Shown here: positions 13,794 to 63,483 of the stretch, piece after piece
Layout: each line of letters begins with the position of its first letter
How positions within the stretch are numbered: position 1 is the first letter of the stretch
DNA from: Bacillota bacterium
GTDB taxonomy: Bacteria > Bacillota > Ch66
NCBI GenBank assembly: GCA_013178045.1
Contig: JABLXP010000001.1
Location: 96,780-160,779 of the forward strand
Length of the DNA: 64,000 nt
Direction: 5' to 3'
Program-made: the position numbers and the translations under genes
The notes under the pieces: generated by a model
Told to the model about the DNA's origin: nothing
What the model saw: the letters and a program-made list of their open reading frames with translations, nothing else
The model's database searches: none

Positions 13794-15530
13794 ATGAGGA
13801 TTTCACAAATGTTAGCACCAACTCTACGGGAAACACCGGCCGAAGCCGAAGTCATCAGCCATAAGCTCTTGCTGCGGGCCGGTATGATTCGTAAAACAAC
13901 CGCGGGCGTGTATACATATTTGCCACTGGGACAACGGGTCATTAAGAAGATCATCGAAATAGTGCGCGAGGAGATGGACCGGGCCGGGGGGCAAGAAGTG
14001 GGTCTGCCGATCATCCAACCCGCTGAGTTATGGCAGGAGACGGGCCGTTGGGCAGTTTATGGGGAAGAGATGTTCCGCCTGAAGGATCGTCATCAACGAG
14101 ATTTTTGTCTGGGACCTACCCATGAAGAGATTATAACTGACCTGGTTAGAGGCGAGGTACGCTCCTATAAGCAGTTACCTCTGCTGCTGTACCAGGTGCA
14201 GAATAAGTATCGTGATGAGCGGCGACCACGTTTTGGGTTAATGCGAGGACGCGAGTTCATCATGAAGGATTTGTACTCATTTGATGTAGATGCCGATGGC
14301 TTGGAAATTAGCTATCGCAAGATGTACGATGCTTACTGTCGCGTTTTTACCCGGTGTGGTTTGCGGTATCGAGCTGTTGAAGCCGATCCCGGGGCAATCG
14401 GTGGTAACGCCAGCCATGAATTCATGGTCCTGGCGGAATCAGGTGAAGCGGAGGTGGTGTTTTGTCAGGTGTGTGACTACGCCGCCAATGTCGAGAAAGC
14501 CGAATGCCAGCCCCAAGTTGAGCCGGCTGAGGTTAAGCATTTGAAGCGGGAGCGGGTGTTCACGCCAGGGGTACAGACCGTGGAAGAAGTGGCAAACTTT
14601 TTCAAGGTCAGTCCGAAACAGGTAATCAAAACTCTGTTTTACCAGGCCGATGATCAGGTGATCGCCGTGCTTCTTCGCGGCGACCGAAGGATCAATGAGA
14701 CAAAGTTGAAGAACCTGGTGAAATGCCTGCGGCTTGAATTGGCCGATGACGCCACCGTAGAACGAGTAACCGGGGCGCCTCCCGGTTCGGTGGGTCCGAT
14801 CGGGCTTACGGGAATAAAAGTGTATGCCGATCTGGAAGTCCCTTTTGTAATTGAGGCGATCGTGGGGGCCAATCAGGTTAATTATCACTGGCAGGGTATT
14901 ACCCCCGGTGTTGATTTTTCGCTGGACGTGGTGGCAGATTTACGGACGATGGAAGCCGGTGAACCCTGTCCTAAATGTGCGAGCCCGGTCACGGTTGCTC
15001 GCGGCATCGAGGTTGGCCATATTTTTAAATTGGGAACCAAGTACAGTGAGGTGCTGGGGGCGAAATTCCTGAATGAAAAGGGACAGGAACTTCCCATGGT
15101 GATGGGTTGTTACGGTATCGGCGTCAGCCGAACGATGGCCGCAGCGGTAGAGCAAAATTACGACCAGGACGGGATCAAATGGCCCATGCCGATCGCTCCT
15201 TTCCATGTGATCGTGGTTCCGGTAAGTACTCATGATGCTGAACAGATGAGAGTGGCGGAAGAACTCTATCAGGGTCTCTTGAGGAGTGGTCTGGAAGTGG
15301 TGGTTGATGACCGTAATGAAAGAGCCGGCGTAAAATTTAAAGACGCCGACCTGATCGGTTACCCGATCCGCGTGACAGTAGGGGCCAAAGCCTTGAAAGA
15401 AGGACAGGTAGAAGTGAAAAAGCGTCAGACCGGCGAGCAGTTTTTCGTGCCGTTACCTGAAGCAGTTGATTACATTGCCAAACTGGTGAAAGAGGAAATA
15501 CAGGCAACGCTTAGCGAGGTATTGAAGTGA
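13794..15530 (+). CDS. proS: Proline--tRNA ligase
   Basis: [23 protein letters not shown] is the canonical bacterial ProS N-terminus, and class II aaRS motifs are present. Confidence 0.95.
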
Positions 15531-15544
15531 TCAAATGAGGAGGC

Positions 15545-16201
15545 TTGAAATTGAGAGCTTCGGTAGTTATCCCAGCCTATAACGAAGCGAAGACAATCGC
15601 TTCGGTTCTAGCTGCGGTCAAGAACGGCGATCCTTTTATCATTGGCGAGGTGATCGTTGTTAGCGACGGTTCTACAGATGAAACAGCCGAGATCGCGCGA
15701 GCGGCGGGGGTACGGGTAGTTGAGCTAAAGGAAAATATTGGAAAAGGCGGGGCGATGATGGTTGGTGTCGAAGCAGCCAACTATGAGGTGATTCTGTTTC
15801 TAGACGCCGACCTGATTGGTCTGACCCCGGCTCATGTTAGTGCTTTGCTTCAACCAGTTATTAGCGGTGAAGCGGATATGTCGGTGGGCATATTTGAACA
15901 CGGGAGAATTGTCACCGATCTGGCTCAGTTGGTTGCCCCTTTTCTCTCGGGGCAACGGGCGATACGTAGTGAAGTTATGTACCAGATCGGTAACCTGAGT
16001 GGCTTACGTTTTGGCGTTGAGGTGGCCTTGAACCGCTATGTTGATGAGCATCAGCTGCGGGTTAAGGAGGTTGTCCTGGAGGATCTATCTCATGTAATGA
16101 AGGAAGAGAAATTTGGGGTAGTTAAGGGATTAGCGGCAAGAATGAAAATGTACTGGGAAATTGCCAAATGTGTCACCCGGAATACTGGTTGGGGTAGTTA
16201 A
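15545..16201 (+). CDS. Family 2 glycosyltransferase (short, dolichyl-phosphate mannosyltransferase-like)
   Basis: SVVIPAYNE...VVSDGSTDET...LDADL are GT-A fold DXD motifs. Likely TTG start at 15551. Confidence 0.7.
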   Translation: MKLRASVVIPAYNEAKTIASVLAAVKNGDPFIIGEVIVVSDGSTDETAEIARAAGVRVVELKENIGKGGAMMVGVEAANYEVILFLDADLIGLTPAHVSALLQPVISGEADMSVGIFEHGRIVTDLAQLVAPFLSGQRAIRSEVMYQIGNLSGLRFGVEVALNRYVDEHQLRVKEVVLEDLSHVMKEEKFGVVKGLAARMKMYWEIAKCVTRNTGWGS

Positions 16202-16250: not shown

Positions 16251-16913
16251 ATGTCTGAGTACGATATGATTTTACGATTGGCCCTGGCCTGTTTTTTAGG
16301 TGGACTGATCGGCCTGGAAAGAGAGAGCTTGAATCGACCCGCGGGATTACGCACCTATACCCTGGTATGTATGGGTTCTGCCCTGGCTATGATGGTATCA
16401 TTAGAAATGTTTTATAAGTATCATACCATGGTCAATGCTGATCCGGGACGAATTGCCGCCCAGGTGATCAGTGGGATCGGTTTTCTAGGCGCGGGTACAA
16501 TCATGCGCGAAGGAGCCAACATTCAGGGCTTAACTACGGCGGCTGGTCTGTGGGTAGTGGCCTGTGTTGGCCTGGCGGTTGGGGCTGGGATGTATTTAGC
16601 CGCTGTGGTGACGACTGCCCTGATTCTGATGGTTCTTGTTTATTTCTTTAAACTTGAGGACCGCATCACCGGCTTGCGAGAATATAAATTGTTTAAGGTG
16701 ACGATGGTCGATAAACCTGGCCAGATCGGTCGGATCGGGGTCGCCCTTGGTGAAGAAGGAGTCCATATCAAGAACATCAAACTTAGTCACGTGGAAGGGG
16801 ACAAGCTGGAAGTAGAACTGATGTTAAAGCTGCCCAGTCTGGTTCGTCCGCGGAACGTTGCCGAAAAGCTGCACGAGGTGCCTGGTGTGCACCGTGTGGA
16901 GCATCAGGAATAG
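16251..16913 (+). CDS. mgtC: MgtC/SapB family membrane protein with a C-terminal ACT-like domain
   Basis: N-terminus LRLALACFLGGLIGLERE is the MgtC signature. Confidence 0.8.
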   Translation: MSEYDMILRLALACFLGGLIGLERESLNRPAGLRTYTLVCMGSALAMMVSLEMFYKYHTMVNADPGRIAAQVISGIGFLGAGTIMREGANIQGLTTAAGLWVVACVGLAVGAGMYLAAVVTTALILMVLVYFFKLEDRITGLREYKLFKVTMVDKPGQIGRIGVALGEEGVHIKNIKLSHVEGDKLEVELMLKLPSLVRPRNVAEKLHEVPGVHRVEHQE

Positions 16914-16925
16914 GGGGCCTAATAC

Positions 16926-19900
16926 ATGTCGGTAATTGTTTCAGAACCAGTGACCTCCCTCGGAGGGAGTATATCGGTACTGATGGAATGGGCAGCAGCA
17001 GCAGATTTACCGTTGTCGGTGAAAGAGATTCTAAGTTGCAGCGAGGTACGCCACGTGACGGTTTGGGCGAGTCAGGGGGCATGGCGAATAGGCTTGCGCC
17101 TACCTGGCCTTATTGCTCCTGGTCACCTAGCCAGGTTAGGTAAGGTCGCGTGTCAGAATGTGCCATCCCTGAACCGGGTCGAATGGGATGTCGAATATGA
17201 TCTCGGGTCGCTCGAGCCGAACCAAATTTGCCAGGAATACTGGGCGGAACTGTCTGCCGTGATTGTCGAGGAATTACCCATTTTTCGTGGATGGCTCGAA
17301 CTGGCCCAGCCACTCGTAGATGGTGGTACACTGACCTTGTTTTTGGAAAACCAGTTGGGTGTTGTCTATTTAAGCAAAAAAAATGGTGCTCAAATGCTAA
17401 ATAAATGGTTTGAACGTCGTTTGGGCTGGCAGCTTCAGGTGGTACTTCGCACACTGGTAAACGAAACCTATGATGAACAACATTGGGAAGAACCCCTTAT
17501 TCCAACAGTCAATGTTGATAAGGTAACTCCTAAAAATGAAAATAATTCAGGCCAACCATTGATCTGGGGCAAAGCAATCAACACTCAGCCAATCCCGATT
17601 AAGCAGATTGTTGATGAAGAAAAGAGTGTTACCCTGCAGGGTAAAGTGTTCAACCTGAATTGTCGGGAATTACGGTCAGGACGCAAGTTGCTGACTTTTG
17701 ATGTCACTGACTACTCCGATTCTATTTCCGTAAAAATATTCCTCGCGGAGGGCAAGGAGCAGAGACCGGACCAGTGGCTTAAAGAAGGAACCTGGGTTGT
17801 TGTGCGGGGAATGGCGCAATTCGACCGTTACAGCCAGGAGTTGACGATTCTGGCTAGTGATTTAAATGTCGGTCAGGCCCCGACGCGGCATGACCAGGCG
17901 GCTGAGAAACGGGTGGAACTCCACCTCCACACCCGCATGAGTGCGATGGATGGTCTGGCCAGCGCAGAGGAAATCATTAAACGAGCCGCTGAATGGGGAC
18001 ACTCAGCGGTAGCGATCACCGACCACGGGGTAGTTCAGGCCTTTCCAGAGGCCTATGAAGCTGGGCTTAAGTACCGTGTGAAGGTGATTCTGGGGATGGA
18101 AGCCTACCTGGTGGATGAACCCAGCCGACGGGGTACGGAGCAGCGGCGGTCATACCATTGCATCATCCTGGCCAAAAACAAGATCGGTCTGAAAAATTTA
18201 TATCAATTGGTTACGCTTTCTCACCTCCAGTATTACTACCGTACCCCCAGGATTCCGCGGCAGGAGTTAGTGCAGAGAAGGGAAGGGTTACTCATAGGGT
18301 CAGCCTGTGAAGCCGGCGAGTTGATCCAGGCATATCTGGCCGGTCAACCGAGCGCCAATCTGGAGAAAATCGCTCAATTTTATGACTTTTTAGAAATTCA
18401 ACCGACGGGAAACAACGAGTTTCTGGTCCGTAACGGCCGGTTTTCGTCGGTGCGGGAACTGGAGGAAATGAATCAAGCCATCGTTGATCTTGGCCGCCGG
18501 CTGAGTAAACCGGTGGTGGCTACGGGCGACGTGCATTTTTTGGACCCTGCTGATGAGGTTTACCGCCGCATCCTGCAAGCCGGGAAGGGTTTTGAAGACG
18601 CCGAATTTCAGGCCCCACTTTACTTCAAGACCACGGAGGAAATGCTGAATGATTTTGCCTACCTGGGTGAGAAAACGGCTTACGAAGTAGTAGTGACCAA
18701 CTCCAATTTAATCAATTCCTGGATCGAAGACATCAAACCGATCCCTGACGAATTGTATGCCCCCAAAATCCCGGGGGCTGAGGAACAGATTATCGAAATG
18801 ACCTATAACCGGGCGCGCGAGATCTATGGTGATCCACTGCCCGCCCTGGTTCAATCCAGACTGGAGAAAGAACTCAATTCGATCATTAAGAATGGTTTTG
18901 CTGTCCTTTATTTAATTGCCCATAAACTGGTTAAAAAATCCAATGATGACGGGTACCTGGTTGGCTCCCGGGGCTCAGTCGGTTCTTCCCTGGTCGCGAC
19001 TATGACCGGGATTACGGAGGTTAACCCGTTACCACCACACTACGTGTGTCCGAACTGCCATCACTCGGAATTTATCACCGATGGATCAATTGGTTCAGGG
19101 GCCGACTTGAGTGATCAGAACTGTCCACGGTGTGGGAGTCAGTACCAACGGGATGGCCACGATATTCCTTTTGAGACGTTTTTAGGTTTTGAGGGGGATA
19201 AAGTTCCTGATATTGACCTTAACTTCTCGGGTGAATACCAGAGCCGGGCCCATAAATATGTGGAAGAATTGTTCGGCCGGGATCATGTGTTTCGCGCGGG
19301 GACGATTGCTACCATCGCTGAGCGCACGGCCTTTGGTTTTGTTAAGAACTACTTAAAAGACCATCAGATTGTGGCCCGCAACGCGGAGATCAATCGCCTT
19401 GTCCAGGGCTGTACCGGGGTTAAACGCACCACTGGTCAACACCCGGGGGGACTAATGGTTGTCCCACGGGACGTTGATGTGCATGACTTTACTCCTTTAC
19501 AGCGACCAGCGGATGATACCGAATCAGAAGTGATCACGACTCATTTTGATTACCACTCGATCAGCAGCCGGCTGGTGAAATTAGATATTCTCGGACACGA
19601 CGACCCGACGGTGATCCGGATGCTGCAGGATCTTACTGGCTTTAACCCCAGAGAGGTTCCCTTGGGAGAACCGAAAACAATGCGATTGTTTTCTGGAGTA
19701 GAGCCGCTAGGAGTAACACCGGAGCAAATCCGGTCAACTGTTGGTACATACGGGATTCCCGAATTTGGGACCCGGTTTGTCCGGCAAATGCTGGAGGAAA
19801 CTAAACCACAGACTTTTTCTGACCTGGTCAGGATCAGTGGTTTCTCACACGGTACGGATGTTTGGCTGAATAACGCCCAGGAAGTGATTCGCAGCGGTCA

Positions 19901-20630
19901 GGCCAAATTATCTGAGGCGATCTCGACCCGTGATGACATCATGACTTATTTAATCTACCAAGGAATGGAACCGATTGTGGCTTTTAAAATCATGGAGGAC
20001 GTCAGAAAAGGCAAAGGACTTAAACCTGATTATGTAGCGGTCATGCGGCGCCAAAACATCCCGGACTGGTACATTTCTTCGTGCCAGAAGATTAAGTACA
20101 TGTTTCCCAAAGCCCACGCAGTGGCCTACGTGACCATGGCCTTCCGTATTGCTTACTTCAAGGTTTATTATCCTGAGGCTTTCTACGCCAGCTTTTTTAC
20201 CGTCAGAGCAGATGAATTTGACGCTCAGCTGATTGTTCAGGGATACGACGCTGTTTTGAAAAAAATCGAAGAGATAGAAAAAAAGGGGGTTGACGCATCA
20301 CCTAAAGAAAAAAACCTGCTAACAATTTTGGAGGTGGCTCTGGAAATGTATGCTCGTGGCATCAAACTCTTACCGGTTGACCTGGACCGTTCTCTAGCGA
20401 CTCATTTTTTGATTACGCCTGATGGATTACTACCGCCTTTGGCTGGTCTTCAGGGAGTAGGGGAAACAGCGGCCAGGAACATTGTGCAGGCGCGGGAGGA
20501 GCGCCCCTTTACTTCGATTGAGGACTTGCGCGTGCGCGGACGGGTTTCAAAGACGGTGCTCGACGCCCTGGCGACCCACGGTTGTTTACGCCATCTACCT
20601 CTTACGGACCAACTGGTGCTTTTTGCCTAG
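16926..20630 (+). CDS. polC: PolC-type DNA polymerase III alpha subunit with no internal proofreading exonuclease domain (1234 aa)
   Basis: Canonical proS-polC-rimP position. PolC architecture is present: N-terminal domain, OB fold before the PHP domain ([13 protein letters not shown]...AITDHG), a CPNCHH...CPRCG zinc finger, the GSRGSVGSS polymerase palm and a C-terminal HhH module. No DEDDh exonuclease segment interrupts the PHP domain. Confidence 0.85.
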   Translation: [1234 protein letters not shown]

Positions 20631-20675
20631 CTGAATTGGCTGTTTTTGTGAGTTAGCGCTTTTGCTTGTCAAGGT

Positions 20676-20704
20676 GATTGCCCTGTGCTATAATGATAAA
20701 GGAT
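20676..20704 (+). promoter_or_regulatory. Sigma-A promoter of the rimP-nusA-infB operon
   Basis: TTGTCA (20676-20681), a 17-nt spacer, then TATAAT (20699-20704). Confidence 0.55.
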
Positions 20705-20888: not shown

Positions 20889-21368
20889 TTGAAAAAGGAC
20901 AGCAAGTCCAAGGAAAAAGTCGAAGAACAGGTGGAGAAATTGGCCCAGCCAATTGTTGCAGCGAACGACCTGGAATTAGTGGGAGTGGAATATAAGAAAG
21001 AAGGCGGGCACTGGTACCTGCGTATTTTTATTGATCGTGATGGGGGAGTAAATTTAGAAGACTGTCAGATGGTCAGTGAGCAGATTGGAGCCAAACTGGA
21101 CGAGGTTGACCCGATTGCCGGCACATATATACTAGAGGTTTCTTCCCCCGGCTTAGAACGGCCTCTGAAGAGGGACCGCGATTATGAGCGTTTCCAAGGT
21201 CATCAGATCACGGTTAATACCTATGCACCCTATAACGGTATAAAAACATTTACGGGAACACTTATTGGACTGCGGGAGGGGATGATTGTCCTTGAGCAAA
21301 ATGGAGAAGAGATCAAGATCCCGAGAGGGCAAGCCGCCAGAGTCCATCTAGTGGCCCAATTTGACTAA
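20889..21368 (+). CDS. rimP: Ribosome maturation factor RimP
   Basis: RimP family sequence (GVEYKKEGGHWYLRIFIDRDGGV). TTG start. An alternative TTG at 20877 sits closer to the GGAGG RBS. Confidence 0.85.
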   Translation: MKKDSKSKEKVEEQVEKLAQPIVAANDLELVGVEYKKEGGHWYLRIFIDRDGGVNLEDCQMVSEQIGAKLDEVDPIAGTYILEVSSPGLERPLKRDRDYERFQGHQITVNTYAPYNGIKTFTGTLIGLREGMIVLEQNGEEIKIPRGQAARVHLVAQFD

Positions 21369-21405
21369 ATTCTTTAATAAAACCGAATATAGAGGAGGCT
21401 TAATC

Positions 21406-22461
21406 ATGAATTTAGATTTTTTACGGGCTTTAGAAGAATTGGAAAAAGAAAAAGGGCTTAGTGTTGAAGTTCTTCTTGAGGCGATTGAAGCAGCCTTAAT
21501 TTCTGCTTATAAGAAGAACTTTGGTTCTTTGCAGAATGTTCGGGTGCATATTGACCGTTCTACTGGAGAGGTTAAGGTATATGCCAGGAAGAATGTAGTG
21601 GAAACGGTGGAAGATTCGCGCGTGGAGATTTCCGTAGATGATGCCAGAAAAATTGATCCGCGGTACGATGTGGAAGACGTGGTAGAGATCGAAGTAACCC
21701 CTAGGAATTTTGGGCGGATTGCGGCACAGACGGCTAAACAAGTTGTCGTGCAACGGATTCGCGAAGCCGAGCGGGGTTTGATTTTTGAGGAGTTTTCTAA
21801 CCGTGAAGGGGATATCATTACAGGAATAATCCAACGTCAAGAACAAAAAAATGTGTTAATCGACCTGGGAAAGACGGAGGCTATTTTAGCACCTTCGGAG
21901 CAGATCAACGGTGAAGAATTCTACCAGGGAGAACGTGTTAAGGTATATATTGTTGAAGTTAAGAAAACAACTAAAGGACCGCAAATAATGGTATCTAGAA
22001 CACATCCCGGGCTGTTGAAACGCTTATTTGAACTGGAAGTGCCAGAAATTTACGATGGAGTTGTAGAGCTAAAAGCAGTAGCCCGGGAGGCCGGTTCCCG
22101 TTCAAAGATAGCTGTTCATTCACGAGATGAAAATGTTGATCCAGTTGGTGCCTGTGTTGGTCCTAAGGGTATGAGGGTGCAGGCCATTGTTAATGAACTC
22201 AGAGGGGAAAAAATTGATATAATTAAGTGGAGTAATGATCCCGCAAAATTTGTTGCTAACGCCCTGAGTCCGGCCAAAGTAATTTCAGTGGACATCAACG
22301 AAGTGGAGAAGATAGCCAAAGTGATCGTCCCCGATTATCAACTTTCGCTGGCCATCGGTAAAGAAGGCCAAAATGCCCGGCTGGCAGCTAAATTAACCGG
22401 TTGGAAAATTGATATTAAAAGTGAAACCCAATCTGGTTTAAACAGCGCTAATATCGAGTAA
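21406..22461 (+). CDS. nusA: Transcription termination/antitermination factor NusA
   Basis: AGGAGG RBS before the ATG at 21406. NusA N-terminal domain, S1 and KH domains are present. The ORF-track start is 21361. Confidence 0.9.
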   Translation: MNLDFLRALEELEKEKGLSVEVLLEAIEAALISAYKKNFGSLQNVRVHIDRSTGEVKVYARKNVVETVEDSRVEISVDDARKIDPRYDVEDVVEIEVTPRNFGRIAAQTAKQVVVQRIREAERGLIFEEFSNREGDIITGIIQRQEQKNVLIDLGKTEAILAPSEQINGEEFYQGERVKVYIVEVKKTTKGPQIMVSRTHPGLLKRLFELEVPEIYDGVVELKAVAREAGSRSKIAVHSRDENVDPVGACVGPKGMRVQAIVNELRGEKIDIIKWSNDPAKFVANALSPAKVISVDINEVEKIAKVIVPDYQLSLAIGKEGQNARLAAKLTGWKIDIKSETQSGLNSANIE

Positions 22462-22478
22462 GGCAGGAGGTGAGAAGT

Positions 22479-22760
22479 GTGCCCAGGATCAAGAAGATAC
22501 CGCAGCGGATATGTCTGGGTTGTCAGGAAATGAAAAGCAAGAAGGAGTTAATCCGTATTGTGCGTACACCAGATAGCGAAGTGTTGATTGATCCTACTGG
22601 CAAGAAAGCAGGGCGCGGTGCTTACATTTGCCCGAATATTGAGTGTTTAACCAAGGCGATAAAAGGGAAACGGTTGGAAAAAGCTCTACAACAGAGCATT
22701 CCAGCAGAAATTCTGGCCGATTTAAAAACGAAACTGGAGGCGGCCCAGCTTGCTAAGTAA
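22479..22760 (+). CDS. ylxR: YlxR/RnpM (DUF448) RNA-binding protein
   Basis: RICLGCQE...RGAYIC motif at the conserved position after nusA. GTG start 9 nt after GGAGG. Confidence 0.8.
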   Translation: MPRIKKIPQRICLGCQEMKSKKELIRIVRTPDSEVLIDPTGKKAGRGAYICPNIECLTKAIKGKRLEKALQQSIPAEILADLKTKLEAAQLAK

Positions 22761-23061
22761 AATCAAAACCCTCTTAGGACTGGGACAAAAAGCCGGTAAT
22801 GTGATTTCCGGGAGTTATGCTGTTCGGGTTGCGTTGGGGAAAAAGCAAGCCAGATTAATGGTCATCGCCGAGGATGTCTCGGACAGGACACGCCAGGAAT
22901 TGGTAGAACTGGCCAGACGTAATGAGGTGCCGATTATTGTTTTGGGGACCAAGGATGAACTGGGGCAGTGTCTGGGAAAAGGTCAGCGAGCGGCAGCGGT
23001 AGTTATTGATCAACAATTGGCTACAGCGATCCGCCGAGCTGTAAAGGAGGAGGAATCCTAA
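22750..23061 (+). CDS. ylxQ: L7Ae-family ribosomal-protein-like protein YlxQ
   Basis: L7Ae fold motifs (GQKAGNVISG ... MVIAEDVS) between ylxR and infB. TTG start. Confidence 0.8.
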   Translation: MLSKIKTLLGLGQKAGNVISGSYAVRVALGKKQARLMVIAEDVSDRTRQELVELARRNEVPIIVLGTKDELGQCLGKGQRAAAVVIDQQLATAIRRAVKEEES

Positions 23062-23099
23062 GTTATATGCTGCGGGGTTAGAATTATGGGGGTGATAGC

Positions 23100-25724
23100 A
23101 TGGGTAAAATTAGGGTACACGAACTGGCAAAAGAACTGGGCGTAAATAGCAAGGAACTGATTAATAAACTACAGGAGTTGGGGATACCAATAAAGAATCA
23201 TATGAGTACATTAGAAGATTATCAGGTGGCGAGAATAAAAGAAATCTGGCAGAAAAAAACACCAGCCATCACCGCCAAAACTGAGACACCAACGGTTGTT
23301 GAGCCTCCCCAGCGTAAAGAGAGACGCGAGACATCTCATCTGCCTGAAACACAAAAGACGGGAGTCCAAACGGTGGTGCTAAACCCGCCGAAGAGCCTGA
23401 GCCCGAATCAGGCCAGTTCTAAAGGGAATCAGCCGCGTCAGACTGGTGAGATTAAGCAGATCGTTAAAGAACGAGTCGCGATGGCTCCTCATCAACCAAC
23501 CGGGTTTAAAGGCAGCCCACACGGGACGAAAGACCGGGTGCCGCAAGGTGGGTATGACCGAATTGTCCATCCGCGGCCGGCTTCGCCGGAGGACCGGCGG
23601 CCAACTCCGCAGGGTGACCGGCGGCCAACTCCGCAAGGGGACCGGCGGCCGGTTTCACAGGGCGAGCGCCGGCCTCCTCAAGATGAACGAGGAACCGGAA
23701 TACCGCGCGACAGATTTGGGACAAATCAGAAGCGCGAACAAGTTGCCTCTCCGGTCAAGATTCTTCCTGTAGTACCTCCAGTACCTCCCGTGCCAATAGA
23801 AGGGCAACGACGAGATAAAACCGTTCGTCCTGAGAGGGGACCAGCTAGTGGGAAAAAGAGGGTTGAAGAACGGGACTTTGTCGATGAACGCTTACTTATG
23901 CCCCGTGGAAAAAAGGGACCTGGTGGGGCGGGTAAAGGGAAATCGCGAGGGGATGTAGCGGTGATCGCCACACCCAAATTAGTAAAAATTCCCGGGGCAG
24001 TGACAGTACAGGAACTGGCTGGGCTTTTTAAACGGAGTCCGGCCGAGTTAATTAAAAAGTTGATGGCTCTAGGGATATTGGCTACCATTAACCAGGAGGT
24101 CGATCCGGAAACGGCGATAATCCTGGGAACGGAATTTGGAATCAATGTCGAAGTAGAAGTTCCGAAAACCGCGGAGGACCTGTTGGAAGAAATTGTTGAT
24201 CCTCCTGAATACCTGGTTGAGCGTCCACCCGTGGTTACGGTCATGGGACATGTAGACCATGGTAAAACATCGCTGCTGGATGCGATTCGAGAAACAAATG
24301 TTACCGCACAGGAAGCTGGTGGAATTACCCAGCATATTGGGGCGTATCAGGTGGAGATTAACGGGAAAAAGATAACGTTTATCGATACCCCCGGGCATGA
24401 GGCTTTTACCGCCATGCGGGCTCGCGGGGCCCAAGTGACCGATATCGCCATCCTGGTTGTGGCAGCAGATGATGGGGTTATGCCTCAGACCATTGAAGCA
24501 ATTAATCATGCCAAAGCCGCTGGCGTACCAATTATTGTGGCTATTAATAAGATCGATAAAGCTAATGCAAACCCTGATCGCGTGAAACAACAGTTGACGG
24601 AATATGGTTTGGTTCCGGAAGAATGGGGGGGCGATACTATTTGTGTTCCTGTTTCTGCCCATACCCGGGAAAACCTGGATACCCTCTTAGAGATGATTCT
24701 GTTGGTGGCTGAGATGAGCGAAATCAAGGCCAATCCCAATCGCCCGGCTAAAGGGACAGTCATCGAAGCCCAGTTGGATAAAGGGCGTGGCCCAGTGGCA
24801 ACTGTTTTAGTTCAGCACGGCACCTTAAAAGTAGGGGATTCGATCCTGGTTGGATTGACTTCAGGCAAGGTCCGGGCCATGATTGATGATAAGGGCCGTC
24901 GGGTCAAGAAGGCAGGTCCATCTACGCCGGTTGAGGTATTAGGTTTAAGTGAAGTGCCGATGGCCGGGGACATCTTCCAGGTAGTTACAGACGAAAAACT
25001 GGCCAGACAAATTACAGCCGAGCGGCAGAACCGTAAGCGAGAAGAAGAGTTACAGAAAACCGCTCGGGTTACCCTGGACGATTTATTTAAACAGATTAAA
25101 GAAGGTCAGGTCAAGGAACTCAATATCATTATCAAAGCTGATGTTCAGGGTTCAATTGAAGCCCTGCGGCAGGCCCTGGAGCGGCTCAGTACGGACGAGG
25201 TACGGGTCAATCCAATACATGGTGGAGTAGGAGCGATTACGGAGACGGACGTGATGCTGGCTTCGGCTTCCAACGCGATTATCATTGGCTTTAACGTTCG
25301 ACCCGATAGCAATACCCGCCGGGCGGCCGAAGCTGAACAGGTCGATATCAGGCTGTACCGAGTGATCTACGATGCAATTGAAGATATCAAAGCGGCGATG
25401 AGCGGTCTGCTGGAGCCAGAATGGAAGGAAGTAGTCCTGGGGAGAGCGGAAGTCCGGGCGACCTTCAAAATACCCAAGGCGGGAACAGTTGCTGGCTGCT
25501 ATGTCACTGAGGGCAAGATCACCAAGACGGCGGAGATTAGAGTGATCCGCGACGGCATTGTTATTCACGAAGGTAAGGTTGAATCATTGCGACGGTTTAA
25601 GGATGACGTCAAAGAGGTTAGCCAGGGATTTGAATGTGGTCTCGGTATTGAGAAGTTCAATGACATAAAAGAAGGGGATATCCTAGAGGCCTTTACCATG
25701 GAGAAGGTTCAACGCGCGTTATAG
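23100..25724 (+). CDS. infB: Translation initiation factor IF-2
   Basis: GTPase G-domain ([25 protein letters not shown]) and the conserved C-terminal domains. Confidence 0.95.
23592..23687 (+). repeat. In-frame 24-nt tandem repeat (about 3.5 copies) encoding (DRRPTPQG)n in the IF-2 N-terminal linker
   Basis: GACCGGCGGCCAACTCCGCAGGGT is repeated with minor variation. Confidence 0.6.
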
Positions 25725-53790: not shown

Positions 53791-54798
53791 TCACTCGTAA
53801 AAGTGGTTGAATCCGCGTGGTGTAAGTTCCGTCCTTGAACCGTTGGCACTCTGCAGCCAGCGGCCAGCGGGAGCCGGTAAAATTTCTCCGACCACAGTTA
53901 ATGGACAGCCAGTATCGGCTATAACCTCGGTCAAACTGGGCAGATTGGCAGGAGCAGTGGTAAAAACCAGTTCATAATCCTCACCGCCGTACAGCGCCCA
54001 GTTTATTTCTTTTGCGTTAAAGTGACGGGCAATGGCGCGCGTAGTGGTCGAGATCGGCAGAGCCTCAACCCAAAGCACGGCCCCGGTTTGACTGGCACTG
54101 CAGATTTCTGTAACTTCACTGGCCAATCCATCACTAATGTCATTCATTGCCGTAACCAGACCGGTGGCCGCCAGCCGCTGCCCGATCTCGACCCGTGGCT
54201 CTGGTCGGAGGTGGCGGCGTATGACTGCTTTGGTTTCGGGTAGATGGCAAACAGGGGCATTGGCCAGTACGTGCAGACCAGCGGCTGAAGCCCCCAGGTC
54301 GCCAGTGACCACGATCACGTCTTCTACCTGTGCGCCTGACCGTAAGACAACATGGTCCGGCGTTGCCTCGCCTAAAAGCGTCAGACTGAGACACACACCG
54401 CCGGTGGAGCGGACGGTGTCTCCACCCACGATGTTTACCCCAAACTGCCGAGCCAGTTGAATCATCCCGGTGTATAACTCTTCCACTTCTTCTACCGTGA
54501 GACTGGGTGGCAGGGCGATGGTGACCAGGGCACTTAAAGGCCGTCCTCCCATGGCAGCGATATCGCTTAAATTAATGGCCATGGCTTTGTGGCCTAGATC
54601 CGCCAGGGAAGTCCATTCTCGCCGAAAATGGATCCCTTCTACCAGCATATCGGCGGTGGCCAGCAGGACCCGTTCGGGCTGCTGCGGCAGGACTGCGGCA
54701 TCATCGCCGATCCCAACCAGAACAGTAGACGGATTACAGATGGACAAAGGTTTTATGCGGTTAATTAGACCGAACTCACCAATTTCGTGCAGTTTCAT
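53791..54798 (-). CDS. thiL: Thiamine-monophosphate kinase
   Basis: ThiL/AIR-synthase-related fold. Last gene of the thi operon. Confidence 0.85.
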   Translation of the reverse strand: MKLHEIGEFGLINRIKPLSICNPSTVLVGIGDDAAVLPQQPERVLLATADMLVEGIHFRREWTSLADLGHKAMAINLSDIAAMGGRPLSALVTIALPPSLTVEEVEELYTGMIQLARQFGVNIVGGDTVRSTGGVCLSLTLLGEATPDHVVLRSGAQVEDVIVVTGDLGASAAGLHVLANAPVCHLPETKAVIRRHLRPEPRVEIGQRLAATGLVTAMNDISDGLASEVTEICSASQTGAVLWVEALPISTTTRAIARHFNAKEINWALYGGEDYELVFTTAPANLPSLTEVIADTGCPLTVVGEILPAPAGRWLQSANGSRTELTPRGFNHFYE

Positions 54799-55432
54799 AC
54801 ATCCTACTCCTATGCAAAATTTCAGTCAGCATTTCCTGGGTTGTCTTGGCAATGTCTGGAGCAGTAACAATAGCAGAAACAACCGCGATCCCATCAGCTC
54901 CAGCCGAAATCACCTCGCGAATATTGGTCAGGTTGATGCCTCCGATGGCTATCAGGGGGAGGGAAACGACCTGACGGATTTCCTTTAATCCAGCAAGACC
55001 GACGATATCCCGCGCATCACTTTTAGTGGTCGTTGGGTAAATAGGTCCGACCCCAAGATAGTCGGCTCCTGCTGCCTGAGCAGCCAGGGCTTCGGCGACG
55101 GAGGTGACGGAAATCCCAAGGATTTTCCCAGGGCCTAATAACTTTCGGGCTACTTCGGCTGGCAAATCATCCTGCCCGAGGTGAACGCCATCTGCGTCAA
55201 CGGCGAGGGCAAGGTCAACCCGGTCGTTGATAATGAATGCAGCACCCGCTCTGGCGGTGATTTCTCGCAGTTCTACTGCTTGCTGCCAGAGTTGACGTTC
55301 AGGAAGTGCTTTTTCCCTCAGTTGAACTGCTGTTGCTCCTCCAGCCAGGGCTTGGGTAATCACCTCTCGGTTGCTACGAGGAGAAGACAACTGCTGATCG
55401 GTGATGACATATAAGGTTCCGTTAAAAAACAT
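54776..55432 (-). CDS. thiE: Thiamine-phosphate synthase
   Basis: ThiE TIM-barrel motifs (LYVITD, VQLREK, GADGVHLGQ). Confidence 0.9.
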   Translation of the reverse strand: MFFNGTLYVITDQQLSSPRSNREVITQALAGGATAVQLREKALPERQLWQQAVELREITARAGAAFIINDRVDLALAVDADGVHLGQDDLPAEVARKLLGPGKILGISVTSVAEALAAQAAGADYLGVGPIYPTTTKSDARDIVGLAGLKEIRQVVSLPLIAIGGINLTNIREVISAGADGIAVVSAIVTAPDIAKTTQEMLTEILHRSRMYETARNW

Positions 55433-56259
55433 TAATTAACCTGACCTCCCTGGCAATTTTCAATAGTGAAGCGCCCCATACGCCGGATTGTTTGTTCATC
55501 CAGATTATACAGGCTGTCGAAGAAAGCGGCTTTAAAACTGGCTGGCCCAGTAGTTTCAGGCCTTTGGGCGGCTAATTCTCCAGCGATCCCAAAGCAGACG
55601 AGAGCGCCAAGGGAAGCCAGGACGGGATCTCGTTCTACAGCGGCGAAAGTGGCAATCACGGAGGCAGCCATACACCCGGTGCCAGTGATCGTTCCCATCA
55701 GAGGATGCCCATTGTCTACATAGGCCCAGATCTGACCGTTGGTGATGAGGTCGCGTGGTCCGGTGACGACGACGGTGGTTTGGTGGGTATTAGCTAGTCG
55801 AGTCGCTCCTTCTGCTAGATCACCGGTAACGCCAACCGCTTCTACTCCTTTGATTTCTCCTTGCAGGCCAGCCAGGATGGCGATCTCCGCCGAATTACCC
55901 TTGATAACCGTTACCTTGACGGCATGCAAAATTGCCCGCGCGCTGTCTGTTCTAAGTCTGGTGGCGCCAACACCGACCGGATCCAGGATGACTGGGATAT
56001 TTTTCGCATTTGCCTGTTGGCCAGCGAGAATCATGGCCTTGATCTGGTCAGGAGTGAGGGTACCGATATTAAGCACTAGGGCGCCGGCCATCGTGACCAT
56101 CTCTTCGACTTCTTCTCGGGCATGGGCCATGACAGGCAACGCACCCATTGCAAGGGTAATGTTGGCACAGTCATTGATCGTTACCTGATTGGTAATATGA
56201 TGGATTAGCGGTTTGGACTTACGCAGTTGATTGAAGCGGTTGACAATTTGGTTAAGCAC
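55432..56259 (-). CDS. thiM: Hydroxyethylthiazole kinase
   Basis: ThiM family sequence ([14 protein letters not shown]...). Confidence 0.9.
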
Positions 56260-56677
56260 GAGATATTCCTCCTAATTTATTAATTATTGTTTGTTCCAGA
56301 GTATAACAGCGATAACGGATTTTTTTGAAACTGACCCCGATTTCTGGAGACAATAGTTTCCCGAATTCCTCCAGCACCCGCATGGCTTCCTGAATTCGAC
56401 GAAGGTTGGCCCGCACCAGGTCAGTTAAGTTTACCCTCGGTGTCTGACCATCTCTGGCTAACTCTGTGCCCACATCACCGTCGGTGTTTCGTTTTACCAG
56501 GAGTTCAGATGCATTGGGAATGCTAAATTCAGCCTGAAGTAGGTCGTGTCTCAACTGTTTTATACTGTCTGTTAGAACTTGGTCGTTCAGGATGAAGCGG
56601 GCGACTTCTTCGACTACGCGCAATCCTTCACGTGCTCGATTAAGGTTGGCATCGATAATCCGATAGATGGTATGCAT
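56252..56677 (-). CDS. Hypothetical protein (141 aa), the first gene of the riboswitch-controlled thi operon
   Basis: Translationally coupled to thiM and immediately downstream of the TPP riboswitch. The sequence [22 protein letters not shown] resembles N-terminal extensions I have seen fused to ThiE in other bacteria. This family assignment is not certain. Confidence 0.5.
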
Positions 56678-56694
56678 TGAATTTCACCTCCCCC

Positions 56695-56744
56695 GAGTTA
56701 AATAAACAGCAAAAACCGTGAAGCCTGATCCAGGTTTCACGGTT
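56695..56744 (-). terminator. Riboswitch expression-platform terminator (OFF-state)
   Basis: On the minus strand, CCGTGAAACCTGGATCAGGCTTCACGG is followed by TTTTTGCTGTTTATTT. Confidence 0.5.
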
Positions 56745-56858
56745 GATTTCTCACCCGCTTCCCTACGCTGGTATTACCCAGATCAGGTGCAAAGGGTCAA
56801 CGGCTTCATGCCATTTCTCAGCTCTGTTTTAACGAGCTCCCCTAGCGGTTATACGTTC
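56745..56858 (-). ncRNA. TPP (thiamine pyrophosphate) riboswitch aptamer
   Basis: The minus-strand sequence contains CTAGGGGAGC...GCTGAGA...ACCCTTTGCACCTGATCTGGGTAATACCAGCGTAGGGAA. This matches the THI-box consensus (GGGG, CUGAGA, ACCUGAUCUGGAUAAUGCCAGCGUAGGGA). Confidence 0.85.
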
Positions 56859-57012: not shown

Positions 57013-57594
57013 ATGAAGGTGAAAGACATACGCATTATCGTTGCTCTGCTGGTCATGATTGGGACCTTCACCGTGCTCGTGGGAGGCAACTTCATTTACC
57101 AACGGTATTTTGTTCAGCAACCTTTGGCGGCGCTCCTAGCCCAGAACAGTGATGTTCACAACCTGCAGATTGAGCAGGAGGCTGACCGGGTGGTGATTAC
57201 GGTTGAATTGGGCGAAGTTAAGAACCTGCAGGATACTTATCGTGAGTTAGAAGAAATGGTCCGGAAACATATGGGGTCAAAGAATTGGGAGCTCAGGATT
57301 ATTGATACCCGGACGCCGAATCTGGAACGGGTTTGGCATGCTTCCCAGTTTGCCCTGTATGAAGCGATCGTCCAGGGAAACTTTACTCACATGGCTAGTG
57401 TAATTGAGCAGTTAGCTAAAGGTGCTGGTCTTGACCGCTACGGATTGTATATAGACGAAAATTACCTCTACCTGCAACTGCATCAAGACCAAAACTTTCT
57501 TTACGCTGTTCTTCCGAGGGGTTCAGTGCTGGGTAATCAACTGGCTCCAACAAGAATGGCCTTGGAAGGACAAGGGGGTAAAGCCAGTGATTAA
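57013..57594 (+). CDS. Hypothetical single-pass membrane protein (193 aa)
   Basis: N-terminal TM helix IIVALLVMIGTFTVLVGG and an AAGGAG RBS. Its stop overlaps the start of the downstream FtsH-like gene by 8 nt. Confidence 0.5.
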   Translation: MKVKDIRIIVALLVMIGTFTVLVGGNFIYQRYFVQQPLAALLAQNSDVHNLQIEQEADRVVITVELGEVKNLQDTYRELEEMVRKHMGSKNWELRIIDTRTPNLERVWHASQFALYEAIVQGNFTHMASVIEQLAKGAGLDRYGLYIDENYLYLQLHQDQNFLYAVLPRGSVLGNQLAPTRMALEGQGGKASD

Positions 57595-59071
57595 AGAGAT
57601 TCTGGTGGGTGTCGGCCTGGGAATTTTGGCTTTTCTGGCGTTTATGGGAGTCAATGTTGCTCCGTTTTTGTTGATGGGAGGGCTGATCGCTACCTTCTAT
57701 TTCATCGTTGAGAAGAAGGGCCTGTTGAAGTCTACGGTAATCGGTGAGTATGGACTGCGGACGGAGTTCACTTTTGAAGACATTGGTGGACAAGCCACGG
57801 CCAAGCAAGAATTGAAAGAGGCACTGGAATTTATAATTCAGGCGGACAAAATTCGTGAAATGGGTATTCGACCATTAAAGGGAATTCTTTTAACCGGTCC
57901 GCCGGGAACGGGAAAAACTTTACTGGCGAAAGCAGCCGCTACTTATACGCGGTCTTTATTCCTGGCTGCTTCCGGCTCTGAATTTATTGAAATGTATGCT
58001 GGAGTCGGGGCGCAACGGGTTAGAAGTCTATTCAAAAGCGCACGCGAACAGGCTAAACGTCAGGGGAAAAACAGCGCGATCATATTTATTGATGAGATTG
58101 AGGTGCTTGGTGGTAAAAGGGGATCGCACACCAGCCACCTGGAATATGATCAGACCTTGAACCAACTCCTGGTCGAGATGGATGGAATCTCTAACCAGGA
58201 CGATATTCGTTTGCTGGTGATTGGGGCGACCAATCGGATGGACATGCTGGATCCAGCCTTGCTTCGTCCCGGCCGGTTTGACCGACAGGTGCGGGTCGAC
58301 CTTCCCGATAAAGCAGGACGTTTAGAAATCCTCCGATTGCATACGAAGAATAAGCCGCTGGATGATGAAGTTGATCTTGAGCAAATCGCCAGGGAGAGCT
58401 TTGGTTTTTCCGGGGCTCACTTAGAGAGCCTGGCCAACGAAGCCGCAGTTTTAGCCTTGCGTGAGGGAGCAAAGGTGATTACTCAACATCACTTGCGCGA
58501 GGCGATTGACAAGGTAATCATGGGAGAAAAACTTGATCGCAAACCAACGCAGGATGAACTTGAACGGGTAGCAGTTCATGAAGCTGGTCACGCGGTGGTG
58601 AGTGAAGTGGTGCGAGCAAATTCGGTGGCCCGGGTGACCATTTCTCCCCGGGGTGGCGCGCTGGGTTACGTTCGACGGACACCCGAAAACGACCAGTACC
58701 TTTATACCCGGGATTTTATTGAGAAGCAGATTATGATTTGCCTGGGCGGAGCAGTTGCCGAGGAAGTGGTGTTAGGAGAGCGGAGCACGGGCTCGTCTAA
58801 TGATTTTGAAGAGGCTGTCCGGCTGGCCAAAAAGATCATCAGTGCTGGATTGTCTCCTCTGGGGATTATCTGCGAGGAGAACATCTCCTCAGAAACAATG
58901 CACCAAGCTATAAAAGATATCATTGCTCAACAGGAGTTTCAGGTAAAGCGTCTGGTTGAGCGGTACCGCAGTAGCATCATCGGGATCGCCAAGGTATTGC
59001 TGGACAACGAAAGCTTACCTGGCGAGGAATTGCGTGCCTACCTTTATAATAGTGTAAGCAAAGCTTCGTAA
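57587..59071 (+). CDS. Short FtsH-family AAA+ zinc metalloprotease, with two closely spaced TM helices and no periplasmic domain
   Basis: Walker A GPPGTGKT, Walker B IIFIDEIE, second region of homology GATNRMDMLDPALLRPGRFDR and M41 zinc site HEAGHAV. 494 aa. GTG start 9 nt after GGGGG. Confidence 0.8.
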   Translation: MIKEILVGVGLGILAFLAFMGVNVAPFLLMGGLIATFYFIVEKKGLLKSTVIGEYGLRTEFTFEDIGGQATAKQELKEALEFIIQADKIREMGIRPLKGILLTGPPGTGKTLLAKAAATYTRSLFLAASGSEFIEMYAGVGAQRVRSLFKSAREQAKRQGKNSAIIFIDEIEVLGGKRGSHTSHLEYDQTLNQLLVEMDGISNQDDIRLLVIGATNRMDMLDPALLRPGRFDRQVRVDLPDKAGRLEILRLHTKNKPLDDEVDLEQIARESFGFSGAHLESLANEAAVLALREGAKVITQHHLREAIDKVIMGEKLDRKPTQDELERVAVHEAGHAVVSEVVRANSVARVTISPRGGALGYVRRTPENDQYLYTRDFIEKQIMICLGGAVAEEVVLGERSTGSSNDFEEAVRLAKKIISAGLSPLGIICEENISSETMHQAIKDIIAQQEFQVKRLVERYRSSIIGIAKVLLDNESLPGEELRAYLYNSVSKAS

Positions 59072-61279: not shown

Positions 61280-62812
61280 ATTATCAATTATTTAATTGGG
61301 GCAATACTTCTAGTTATTGGTGTTCTGATTGGATTTCTGGTCCGTAAGGCTTTAGCGGAGGCCAGGATCAATTCAGCGGAAGAAGCTGCCCGAAAAATTA
61401 TTGAGGAAGCCGAGAAAGAGGCAGAGGCCAAAAAGCGGGAAGCGATCCTGGGGGCAAAAGAGGAAATTCACCAACTCCGTTCTGAAGCCGAGCGGGAAAA
61501 CCGGGAGCGCCGGAACGAGCTGCAACGGTTGGAACGCCGCTTGTTGCAAAAGGAAGAAACGCTCGATCGCAAGATGGAGGGCCTGGAGCGCAAAGAAGAC
61601 GCTTTGCAAAGAAAAGAAGCCGAGGTTGACCGGCTCAGAGAGGAGTTGGCGCGAATCCATGAGCGGCAGCTAACGGAATTAGAACGTTTGTCCGGGTTAA
61701 CCTGGGACGAGGCTCGCCAGTTGCTTTTGAGTAAGGTTGAGGATGAAATTAAGCATGAGATTGCTGTCATGATCAAGGATATGGAGACTCAGGCCAAAGA
61801 AGAGGCGGAGAAAAAGGCGAGAGAAATCATTACCCTGGCTATTCAACGCTGCGCCGCTGATGTTGTGGCCGAGACCACTGTATCAGTTGTGGCTTTACCG
61901 AACGATGAGATGAAGGGGCGGATTATTGGGCGTGAAGGACGGAATATCCGTACACTCGAGACCCTGACCGGTATTGACCTGATTATCGATGATACACCGG
62001 AGGCCGTGATTCTTTCCGGTTTTGACCCGATCAGACGGGAAATAGCTCGACTGGCTCTGGAAAAACTAATTTTGGACGGGCGAATTCACCCGGCTCGTAT
62101 TGAGGAGATGGTGGAAAAAGCCCAGAAGGAAGTTGACCAGAAAATCCGGGAAGAAGGAGAACAGGCTGCGTTCGAGACAGGGGTTCATGGTCTGCATCCC
62201 GAACTGATTAAGTTACTCGGGCGGCTGAAGTACCGAACCAGTTATGGCCAAAATGTTTTAAAGCATTCAATTGAAGTATCCCATTTAGCCGCGGCCATGG
62301 CTGCTGAACTTGGTGCTGATGTGCAATTGGCAAAACGAGCGGGCCTTCTTCATGATATCGGTAAGGCAGTTGACCACGAAGTCAGTGGTCCCCACGTCAA
62401 TATCGGTGCGGATCTGGCCAAGAAATATCGAGAGGGGCCCGAGGTAATTCATGCGATTATGGCCCACCACGGTGATATTGAACCTCAGACTATTGAGGCG
62501 GTTCTGGTACAGGCGGCTGACGCTATCTCGGCAGCCAGACCAGGAGCACGCCGGGAGACCCTTGAAGCCTACATCAAACGGCTTGAGAAACTAGAAGAAA
62601 TCGCGGATTCTTTTGAAGGCGTCGAAAAATCATACGCTATTCAGGCGGGGCGGGAGATCCGGATTATGGTTAAACCTGATAAGGTTGATGATGCAACCTC
62701 AGTGCGCATCGCCCGCGATATCGTTAAGAAAATTGAAAGCGAACTAGAATACCCCGGGCAGATTAAGGTTGTGGTAATCAGAGAGACCCGGGTGGTTGAT
62801 TACGCCAAGTAA
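61280..62812 (+). CDS. rny: Ribonuclease Y (N-terminal TM anchor, coiled coil, KH and HD domains), apparently initiating at a non-canonical ATT/ATC codon
   Basis: KH ([15 protein letters not shown]) and HD ([17 protein letters not shown]...LLHDIGK) domains. The frame is open back to the stop at 61271-61273 and encodes a conserved TM helix [25 protein letters not shown] at 61266-61271. The first ATG/GTG/TTG in frame is at 61529. Confidence 0.8.
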
Positions 62813-62833
62813 ATTGTTTGATTTTAGACATTA

Positions 62834-62866
62834 AAAACTGGTCTCGGTTGAGGCCAGTTTTTTCAA
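62834..62866 (+). terminator. Rho-independent terminator after rny
   Basis: AAAACTGGTCTC-GGTT-GAGGCCAGTTTTTT. The 8-bp stem contains one G-U pair and is flanked by A and T runs. Confidence 0.6.
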
Positions 62867-62937
62867 ATCGCTTAAATCGAAATAGAGAGAAAAAAAGAAG
62901 GATTTTGTTTAAAGATCGCGAAATAATATCAACACTT

Positions 62938-63483
62938 ATGACCGAAAGGAAGGCGACCACTACTGTGTACATAAAAACTAGGACGGTGCATGCCGGCTCC
63001 GATAGCGTTGAACTCTTGACATCAATTATGATGCGTTACCCGGAAGTTGGGACAATTAATTTTGAACCAGCCAGACGACTACTAAAGTTTACTTTTATTC
63101 TCTCACAAGTGGTAACGAATAAGGAGATTGATTTATTCCGGGAAAAGCTGGTCACTATGGTTGATGCTTATAATCATTTAGAGGGCCGGGAACCAGGTGT
63201 GGTCGAAGTGACAGCTACTTTTTGTAAACAGTTAACACTCTTGGAAATTAGTCGAGACATCGAGTCCCTGGATTATGACGAAATTGCCTTATTAATGGCC
63301 ATCCTGCACCAGCAATTTGGTTCCCTGATTATGACCGAGGAGAGCGAGGGGATGCTGGAAGAGGAAATTCTCTTGCAGGAAGACTTGATCCGACAGATGC
63401 TAGAGAGCTTAAGGTGCTGTGAACAAGAAAAGAAACTGGTTGCCTTTCGTGAAGAGGGCCGCGTTCTGGTATTCAATAAATAG
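62938..63483 (+). CDS. Hypothetical protein between rny and ymdB, start uncertain
   Basis: Long ORF (track 62818-63483) whose 5' end contains the rny terminator, so the true start must be internal, for example M at 62938. No family recognised. Confidence 0.35.
   Translation: MTERKATTTVYIKTRTVHAGSDSVELLTSIMMRYPEVGTINFEPARRLLKFTFILSQVVTNKEIDLFREKLVTMVDAYNHLEGREPGVVEVTATFCKQLTLLEISRDIESLDYDEIALLMAILHQQFGSLIMTEESEGMLEEEILLQEDLIRQMLESLRCCEQEKKLVAFREEGRVLVFNK

Follow-up and report, generated by a model that had tools for sequence, protein, structure and literature searches.

The 64,000-nucleotide stretch of contig JABLXP010000001.1 analysed here, from a Bacillota bacterium and referred to below as the window, carries at 16926..20630 on the plus strand an open reading frame (ORF), polC, the product of which is a genuine PolC-type DNA polymerase III alpha subunit. 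Comparison with other PolC proteins showed that the DnaQ-like DEDDh exonuclease domain (Exo) is replaced in this protein by a 12-residue loop, located in a surface loop of the PHP domain, and that the rest of the protein is intact. The gene is probably a functional and naturally Exo-less polC of an uncultured, clostridial-type spore-forming Bacillota, the product of which would proofread by means of its own PHP domain.

The polC ORF starts with ATG and encodes 1234 amino acids (aa), the end coordinate including the stop codon. The ATG is located 12 nt past the stop codon of the preceding gene, and a Shine-Dalgarno-like GGGGG run was found 9-13 nt 5′ of it. Comparison with the NCBIfam models gave 1621.9 bits for the PolC equivalog NF001688 (cut-off 873) and 1491.3 bits for TIGR01405 (cut-off 1043.45), and every DnaE model scored far under its own cut-off. 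The top match in PDB was the Geobacillus PolC 3f2b with 1345 bits, and 9qpc was matched with 1202 bits. The domain order, N-terminal domain (NTD)-OB-PHP-Pol3-HhH, is that of the PolC type, with the OB fold N-terminal to PHP and without the C-terminal OB/C-terminal domain of the DnaE type. The sequence PDIDLNF at aa 761-767 has Asn at the position where DnaE has the third conserved Asp (PDxDxN), which is a hallmark of PolC (PMC3919608). The catalytic palm residues D762, D764 and D887, lying in the motifs PDIDLN and LDILGHDD, were invariant in all 120 sequences of the alignment described below, the query included. At the N-terminus, PF14480/PF11490 were found in homologues of the protein in the region equivalent to aa 1-224; the N-terminal domains of PolC are poorly conserved (PMC3919608). 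At the other end, the protein stops 1 residue beyond the beta-clamp-binding motif, the sequence of which varies among homologues (QLSLF, QMALF and similar). With the parts for polymerisation and clamp binding both intact, the gene looks fully functional, as judged from its sequence and the structural model.

The equivalog scores, the order of the Pfam domains and the hallmark Asn bear out the original prediction, made from the sequence without database searches, that the gene encodes a PolC of 1234 aa with PolC-specific architecture. The motifs which that prediction quoted were all found in the protein: ELHLHT at aa 331, AITDHG at aa 364, an 11-residue segment at aa 390, a 21-residue segment at aa 409, CPNC at aa 708 and CPRC at aa 733. 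The absence of Exo defines an Exo-less sub-variant of PolC, and is thus compatible with PolC orthology.

Pfam scanning of the polC product found no PF00929 (RNase_T) domain, even at E<=1. The match to NF001688 was split in two, the second part running over aa 405-1233 against profile positions 610-1444 of 1445, and about 195 profile positions, those of the Exo domain, were skipped. The protein was then aligned with its 119 best database homologues using MAFFT, giving 120 sequences in total. In 36 of these, an insert of 207-209 residues was found between the G-x-E-A/G-Y-L-x-D/E and x-x-H-x-I-L strands of PHP, showing the DEDDh motifs DLETTG, VAHNAxFD and HHRAVDDA; the other 84, including the query, have merely 9-17 residues at the insertion point. 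Between the flanking PHP strands the query has only a 10-residue segment. Alignment and PF00929 search, two of the checks proposed with the original prediction, revealed no exonuclease domain within the ORF.

A profile hidden Markov model (HMM) was built from the 36 PolC Exo domains and run, with filters off, against all stop-to-stop segments of at least 40 aa in the six frames of the window. No exonuclease was found in any frame of the 64 kb, the best hit having an E value of 1.3 and 4 bits. This negative result rules out a frameshifted or hidden remnant of the exonuclease, and indicates that no separate PolC-like exonuclease is encoded within the 64 kb. Taken together, the alignment, the skipped profile positions and the Exo HMM agree with the earlier claim that the DEDDh domain is cleanly absent at the canonical PHP insertion point.

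The window is identical in sequence to part of a 92.7-kb contig of a metagenome assembly (Logan, run SRR6318356), and the missing domain could in principle be an artefact of assembly or sequencing, such as a collapsed deletion, or the mark of a decaying pseudogene. However, the ORF is uninterrupted, a remnant of Exo exists in no frame, and the catalytic residues are all intact. A 78%-identical homologue, L082, was obtained from a separate run (SRR6186653); it shares the junction of the query, and its gene order, GT2-MgtC-polC-rimP-nusA-ylxR, is the same as in the window. The same Exo-less junction class is shared by the 84 aligned PolCs mentioned above, some of which come from isolates with multi-megabase contigs. 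Exo-less PolCs of isolates were found in Candidatus Formimonas warabiya (6.4 Mb), Heliorestis convoluta (3.2 Mb), Heliobacterium chlorum, H. gestii, Paradesulfitobacterium and Desulfitobacterium, with lengths of 1211-1256 aa in isolate genomes; others were found in metagenome-assembled genomes (MAGs) assigned to Desulfitobacterium hafniense and Desulfosporosinus. Assembly collapse was rejected because the junction recurs in an independent run and in many isolate genomes, and we regard the artefact or pseudogene reading as effectively refuted, with a negligible probability. A hidden exonuclease and an assembly deletion, the two outcomes that the original prediction had named as fatal to it, are thus both excluded by the Exo HMM, the junctions of the homologues and L082.

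A model of aa 225-1234 predicted with AlphaFold2 (AF2) had a mean predicted local distance difference test (pLDDT) score of 86 and a predicted template modelling (pTM) score of 0.76. Only two segments had a pLDDT below 50, namely aa 402-405 (residues 178-181 of the modelled fragment), which belong to the junction loop, and a second loop close to the zinc finger. In the PHP region most 10-residue blocks had pLDDT values of 90-98, and only the junction loop was predicted to be disordered; the OB region was modelled with high pLDDT and has its beta strands within residues 8-91 of the fragment. Superposition of the model on 3f2b gave template modelling (TM) scores of 0.89/0.90 with 59% identity. 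The structures 3F2B, 3F2C and 3F2D are of an engineered Geobacillus kaustophilus ΔNΔExo PolC, from which Exo was removed at the same loop where it is naturally lost in the query, and the natural loop of the query aligns with the artificial GSGSG linker of 3f2b. An engineered S. aureus PolC-ΔNΔExo is a fast polymerase with a kpol of 330 per s (PMC3656037), and removal of Exo at this loop is thus known to leave a competent polymerase. Unlike these constructs, the query is a natural protein and keeps its N-terminal domain.

The nine metal ligands of the PHP domain, H333, H335, D342, H367, E392, H411, C461, D535 and H537, are all present in the query and read HHDHEHCDH, as the original prediction had proposed to check. 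This series agrees with HHDHEH[C/H]DH, the motif by which an 'active' PHP exonuclease has been defined (PMC12926913). A proofreading trinuclear zinc centre is bound by these nine residues in M. tuberculosis DnaE1, and the substitution D226N abolishes the activity; in Geobacillus PolC one PHP ligand is mutated and PHP exonuclease activity is absent (PMC5636811). The loop that takes up the DEDD domain in PolC adjoins the PHP active site (PMC5636811). HHDHEHCDH was invariant in the 120 aligned sequences, in the Exo-less (84/84) as well as in the Exo-containing ones (36/36).

The comparison also covered 80 PolC loci among the GTDB matches listed, a broad but non-random sample in which proportions are not estimates of prevalence. 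Three truncated or mis-selected ORFs (L007, L051 and L079) were ignored in the alignment, leaving 27 Exo-less and 50 Exo-containing PolCs to be scored. The PHP site was intact in 27/27 of the former and in 33/50 of the latter. The remaining 17 Exo-containing proteins have Asn at ligand 8 (HHDHEHCNH), a change seen in none of the 27 Exo-less ones. All 17 are from Bacillales, including B. subtilis (L032) and, for example, L017, L021, L025, L036, L041 and L053, and every Bacillales PolC among the matches listed (17/17) has this Asn. The query, in contrast to these sampled Bacillales PolCs, has Asp at ligand 8 (D535). The Asn of Bacillales is the D-to-N change also made by D226N, which inactivates the PHP exonuclease of M. 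tuberculosis DnaE1. In total, no PHP ligand change was found in 111 Exo-less PolCs (84 from the first alignment and 27 among the GTDB matches listed). The association of an intact PHP site with Exo loss among the GTDB matches listed was significant but phylogenetically confounded (Fisher p = 3e-4). The pattern over the 111 cases fits a rule, read here from sequences, by which PolC would keep at least one intact nuclease.

PolCs without Exo have been described before. The Exo insertion is absent from about 6% of PolCs, which, apart from one extra PolC copy in Thermotogae, are from Clostridia or Negativicutes (PMC3919608). The genomes concerned pair PolC with DnaE1, and 16% of PolC+DnaE1 systems are without an internal exonuclease (PMC3919608); PHP proofreading and a dominant DnaE1 were discussed as explanations (Timinskas et al., NAR 2014, PMC3919608). 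A 2026 survey by the same group mapped the PHP and DnaQ proofreaders and reported that up to three 'active' proofreaders are usual in clostridia, with clostridial PolC and DnaE1 both keeping 'active' PHP sites (PMC12926913). Exo-less PolCs among the GTDB matches listed were found in Selenomonadaceae, Dialister, Veillonella, Faecalibacterium, Acutalibacteraceae, Oscillospiraceae, Limnochordia, Syntrophomonadaceae and others. The expectation that this would be an unusual replisome for a Firmicute was therefore overstated, as the variant has been known since 2014, makes up 84 of the 120 aligned PolCs and occurs 27 times among the GTDB matches listed. The architecture is documented and widespread in clostridial-type Firmicutes, and the query is a further member.

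Compared with the Exo-less PolCs of Timinskas et al., the query has the same NTD-OB-PHP-Pol3-HhH organisation, with Exo missing and the PHP site conserved, and no architectural difference was found. The nearest relatives of the query PolC are from a Syntrophomonadaceae MAG, Desulfitobacterium, Heliobacterium and Zhaonellaceae, all clostridial-type Bacillota. The sequence itself is new, its nearest homologue being 78% identical and its nearest named homologue about 61%, and is known from Logan metagenome assemblies only. The query is orthologous to the canonical PolC of B. subtilis, S. aureus and Enterococcus (9QPC), with which it shares the rimP-nusA-infB slot, the zinc finger, PDIDLN and the clamp motif, but it is without their DEDDh exonuclease of about 208 aa and, unlike Bacillales PolC, has a complete PHP metal site. 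An integral DEDDh domain is likewise missing from M. tuberculosis DnaE1 and Thermus Pol III alpha, in which a loop of short or medium length adjoins the PHP active site at the usual place of Exo in PolC; they are, however, DnaE1-type enzymes with the OB fold at the C-terminus and with a different N- and C-terminal organisation. PHP exonuclease has been demonstrated in those two enzymes (PMC5636811), whereas in the query it is predicted. PolCs 60-63% identical to the query were also found in two MAGs labelled Ignavibacteriales (L002) and Bacteroidota (L012); these contigs are probably mis-binned, since PolC typically belongs to Firmicutes and a small number of allied groups.

The distribution of Exo over the PolC tree was studied with bootstrapped neighbour-joining trees on shared columns, and the Exo state was reconstructed by Fitch parsimony. 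These trees were star-like at depth with weakly supported deep nodes, and only the statement that more than one event occurred is safe. For the 120 nearest homologues the Exo state required 2-4 changes in 60/60 replicates, and one Exo-less PolC (P0039) joined a 24-member Exo-containing clade with 98% support. For 75 GTDB PolCs among the matches listed, 5-10 changes were required in 50/50 replicates; this tree contained a sister pair of one Exo-less and one Exo-containing PolC (100%) and an all-Exo-less clade of Negativicutes (100%). The query paired with P0002 (100%) within an all-Exo-less clade of 9-12 sequences which includes the Syntrophomonadaceae MAG (85-87%). The scattered Exo-less state suggests, on these sequences, recurrent clean loss of the DnaQ insert; several gains at one and the same loop would be less plausible.

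As to how such an enzyme would proofread, we infer that the PHP zinc exonuclease of PolC itself is the likeliest mechanism, and hold this with somewhat better than even confidence. In this mechanism 3′-5′ proofreading would be done by the polymerase's own PHP domain with its complete nine-residue trinuclear-zinc site, a site of the same type as in the proofreading M. tuberculosis DnaE1 and Thermus Pol III alpha. A second replicase, DnaE1, with an intact PHP in clostridia according to the literature, would probably share replication and may add proofreading. The DEDDh insert would then be redundant in these lineages, and may have been lost for that reason, apparently more than once.

Several points weigh against proofreading by PHP. 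To our knowledge, PHP exonuclease activity has been experimentally shown for no PolC of any kind, and an intact set of ligands is necessary but not sufficient for such activity. Exo-containing clostridial PolCs keep the PHP site too (36/36 in the first alignment; 33/50 among the GTDB matches listed), so that the site is not peculiar to Exo-less enzymes, and a structural or pyrophosphatase role could account for its conservation. The link of an intact PHP site with Exo loss is moreover confounded, as every degenerate case belongs to a single order.

The original prediction had put forward a trans-acting exonuclease beside PHP-based proofreading, and these two are the right alternatives to weigh. 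A separately encoded DnaQ/epsilon-like DEDDh exonuclease could dock on the Exo-less PolC in trans, which would in effect amount to fission or replacement of the gene. Standalone homologues of DnaQ are widespread, averaging more than 3 per bacterial proteome, and E. coli alpha-epsilon and the mycobacterial DnaQ provide precedents (PMC12926913); the Exo of B. subtilis PolC can also proofread for DnaE3 in trans. Against this, the six frames of the window contain no Exo-like ORF, and neither RNase_T nor a DnaQ or DnaE was found among the 36 larger ORFs of the window scanned with Pfam or among the Pfam families of the polC neighbourhood genes. In about 28 Exo-less GTDB loci among the matches listed, the Exo HMM search was also empty over about 6 kb to each side of polC. 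In the 2026 survey, Proteobacteria, Actinobacteria and Treponema were the only groups to which DnaQ subunits were assigned, and Clostridia were not among them (PMC12926913), and an epsilon-binding surface is not known for PolC. We therefore consider a trans-acting DnaQ unlikely. Another explanation, raised as a possibility by Timinskas et al., is that PolC does not proofread and has a restricted role, while DnaE1 with its active PHP exonuclease is the main or correcting replicase. It agrees with this that every Exo-less PolC comes from a clostridial genome which also encodes a full-featured DnaE1, and that DnaE1 alone is present in some Clostridia (PMC3919608). However, PolC is kept at full length in a conserved replication/translation neighbourhood, and its catalytic, clamp-binding and PHP residues are invariant in more than 110 Exo-less sequences. 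This points to strong selection for an enzyme that is processive and probably competent as a nuclease, and a non-proofreading PolC thus appears improbable.

If proofreading is indeed done by PHP, Exo-less PolCs might as a class be natural 'PHP-only' replicases, from which the insert was excised several times and only where the trinuclear-zinc PHP site is complete; we advance this tentatively, with somewhat less than even confidence. Clostridial PolC would then have kept an active ancestral PHP exonuclease, which would make the DnaQ-type insert dispensable. The single gene described here matters little, as it adds one sequence to a variant already catalogued in 2014. The question of how Exo-less PolCs proofread, and how replication is shared between PolC and DnaE1 in clostridia, concerns the whole class and has already been posed in the literature. 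PolC is an antibiotic target. Among the abundant gut and environmental taxa that have an Exo-less PolC are Faecalibacterium, Veillonella, Dialister and Desulfitobacterium, and for these reasons a biochemical test of PHP proofreading in an Exo-less PolC would be useful, although the window adds no unique leverage for it.

The features of the polC product and the genes adjacent to polC are listed in Table 1.

Table 1. Regions of the polC gene and neighbouring genes, with positions in the window
Feature	Position	Strand	Remarks
PolC N-terminal domain region	16926..17597	+	aa 1-224; weak Pfam DNA_pol3_a_NII match at aa 105-176, E=0.02
OB fold	17628..17867	+	aa 235-314; Pfam PF01336, E=2e-9
PHP domain	17916..18536	+	aa 331-485 by Pfam PF02811, E=8e-35
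12-residue loop	18114..18149	+	aa 397-408; site of the ~208-aa DEDDh exonuclease in canonical PolC
Polymerase core, palm and fingers	18786..20015	+	Pfam PF07733, E=1e-61 (aa 621-805); PF17657, E=5e-24 (fingers, aa 893-1030)
Cys4 zinc finger CPNC...CPRC	19047..19133	+	C708, C711, C733, C736; kept in 119-120/120 homologues
C-terminal tandem helix-hairpin-helix, HHH_6	20358..20600	+	aa 1145-1225; Pfam PF14579, E=5.5e-15
Beta-clamp-binding motif QLVLF	20610..20624	+	aa 1229-1233; fits the consensus QL[S/D]LF of PMC3919608
proS	13794..15530	+	Pfam tRNA-synt_2b, tRNA_edit, HGTP_anticodon
GT2 glycosyltransferase	15545-16201	+	between proS and polC
MgtC-family membrane protein	16251-16913	+	between the GT2 gene and polC
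rimP-nusA-ylxR-L7Ae-infB operon	20889..25724	+	Pfam families

The gene order around polC was found to be rpsB-tsf-pyrH-frr-uppS-cdsA-(AI-2E)-dxr-rseP-ispG-proS-GT2-MgtC-polC-rimP-nusA-ylxR-L7Ae-infB-rbfA-DHH-truB-ribF-rpsO-pnp. The 'invariant proS-polC-rimP slot' described in the original prediction holds on the rimP side, which is a conserved block, but not on the proS side, where the GT2 and MgtC genes intervene. The same GT2-MgtC pair is also located 5′ of polC in L082 (749-2077), from another sample, and is thus a feature of the lineage and not a local rearrangement. In the 258-nt spacer between polC and rimP, a promoter-like site of the sigma-70 type was seen at 20666-20694 (TTGTCA-17-TATAAT, extended TG, 11/12), a candidate by sequence that is consistent with a separate promoter for rimP-nusA-infB.

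The rest of the window encodes functions of core metabolism, sporulation and division, including dapB, dpaA/B, asd, dapG, dapA, RNase J, ftsK, rodZ, recA and RNase Y. The dipicolinate synthase genes dpaA/dpaB together with flagellar/chemotaxis genes are typical of spore-forming Firmicutes. No rRNA was found in the 64 kb. The sole minus-strand cluster of the window lies at 53791-56853, where the GC content is locally up to 54.6% and the GC skew is inverted. It contains a thiamine pyrophosphate (TPP) riboswitch at 56743-56853 (-) with 86.8 bits, located upstream of a thiM-like gene (55432-56259), thiE (54776-55432) and an AIR-synthase-family gene (53791-54798), which is probably thiL.

At 57013-59071, a 193-aa ORF without Pfam match overlaps the start of a gene for a 494-aa FtsH-like AAA+/peptidase M41 protein, which seems to be without the usual N-terminal transmembrane and extracellular region. 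The ORF at 62818-63483 had no Pfam match. The RNase Y ORF at 61529-62812 starts with TTG and encodes 427 aa, of which the RNase_Y_N match begins at profile position 83; as a 588-nt gap lies upstream, the real start of this gene is probably located further upstream than the ORF call.

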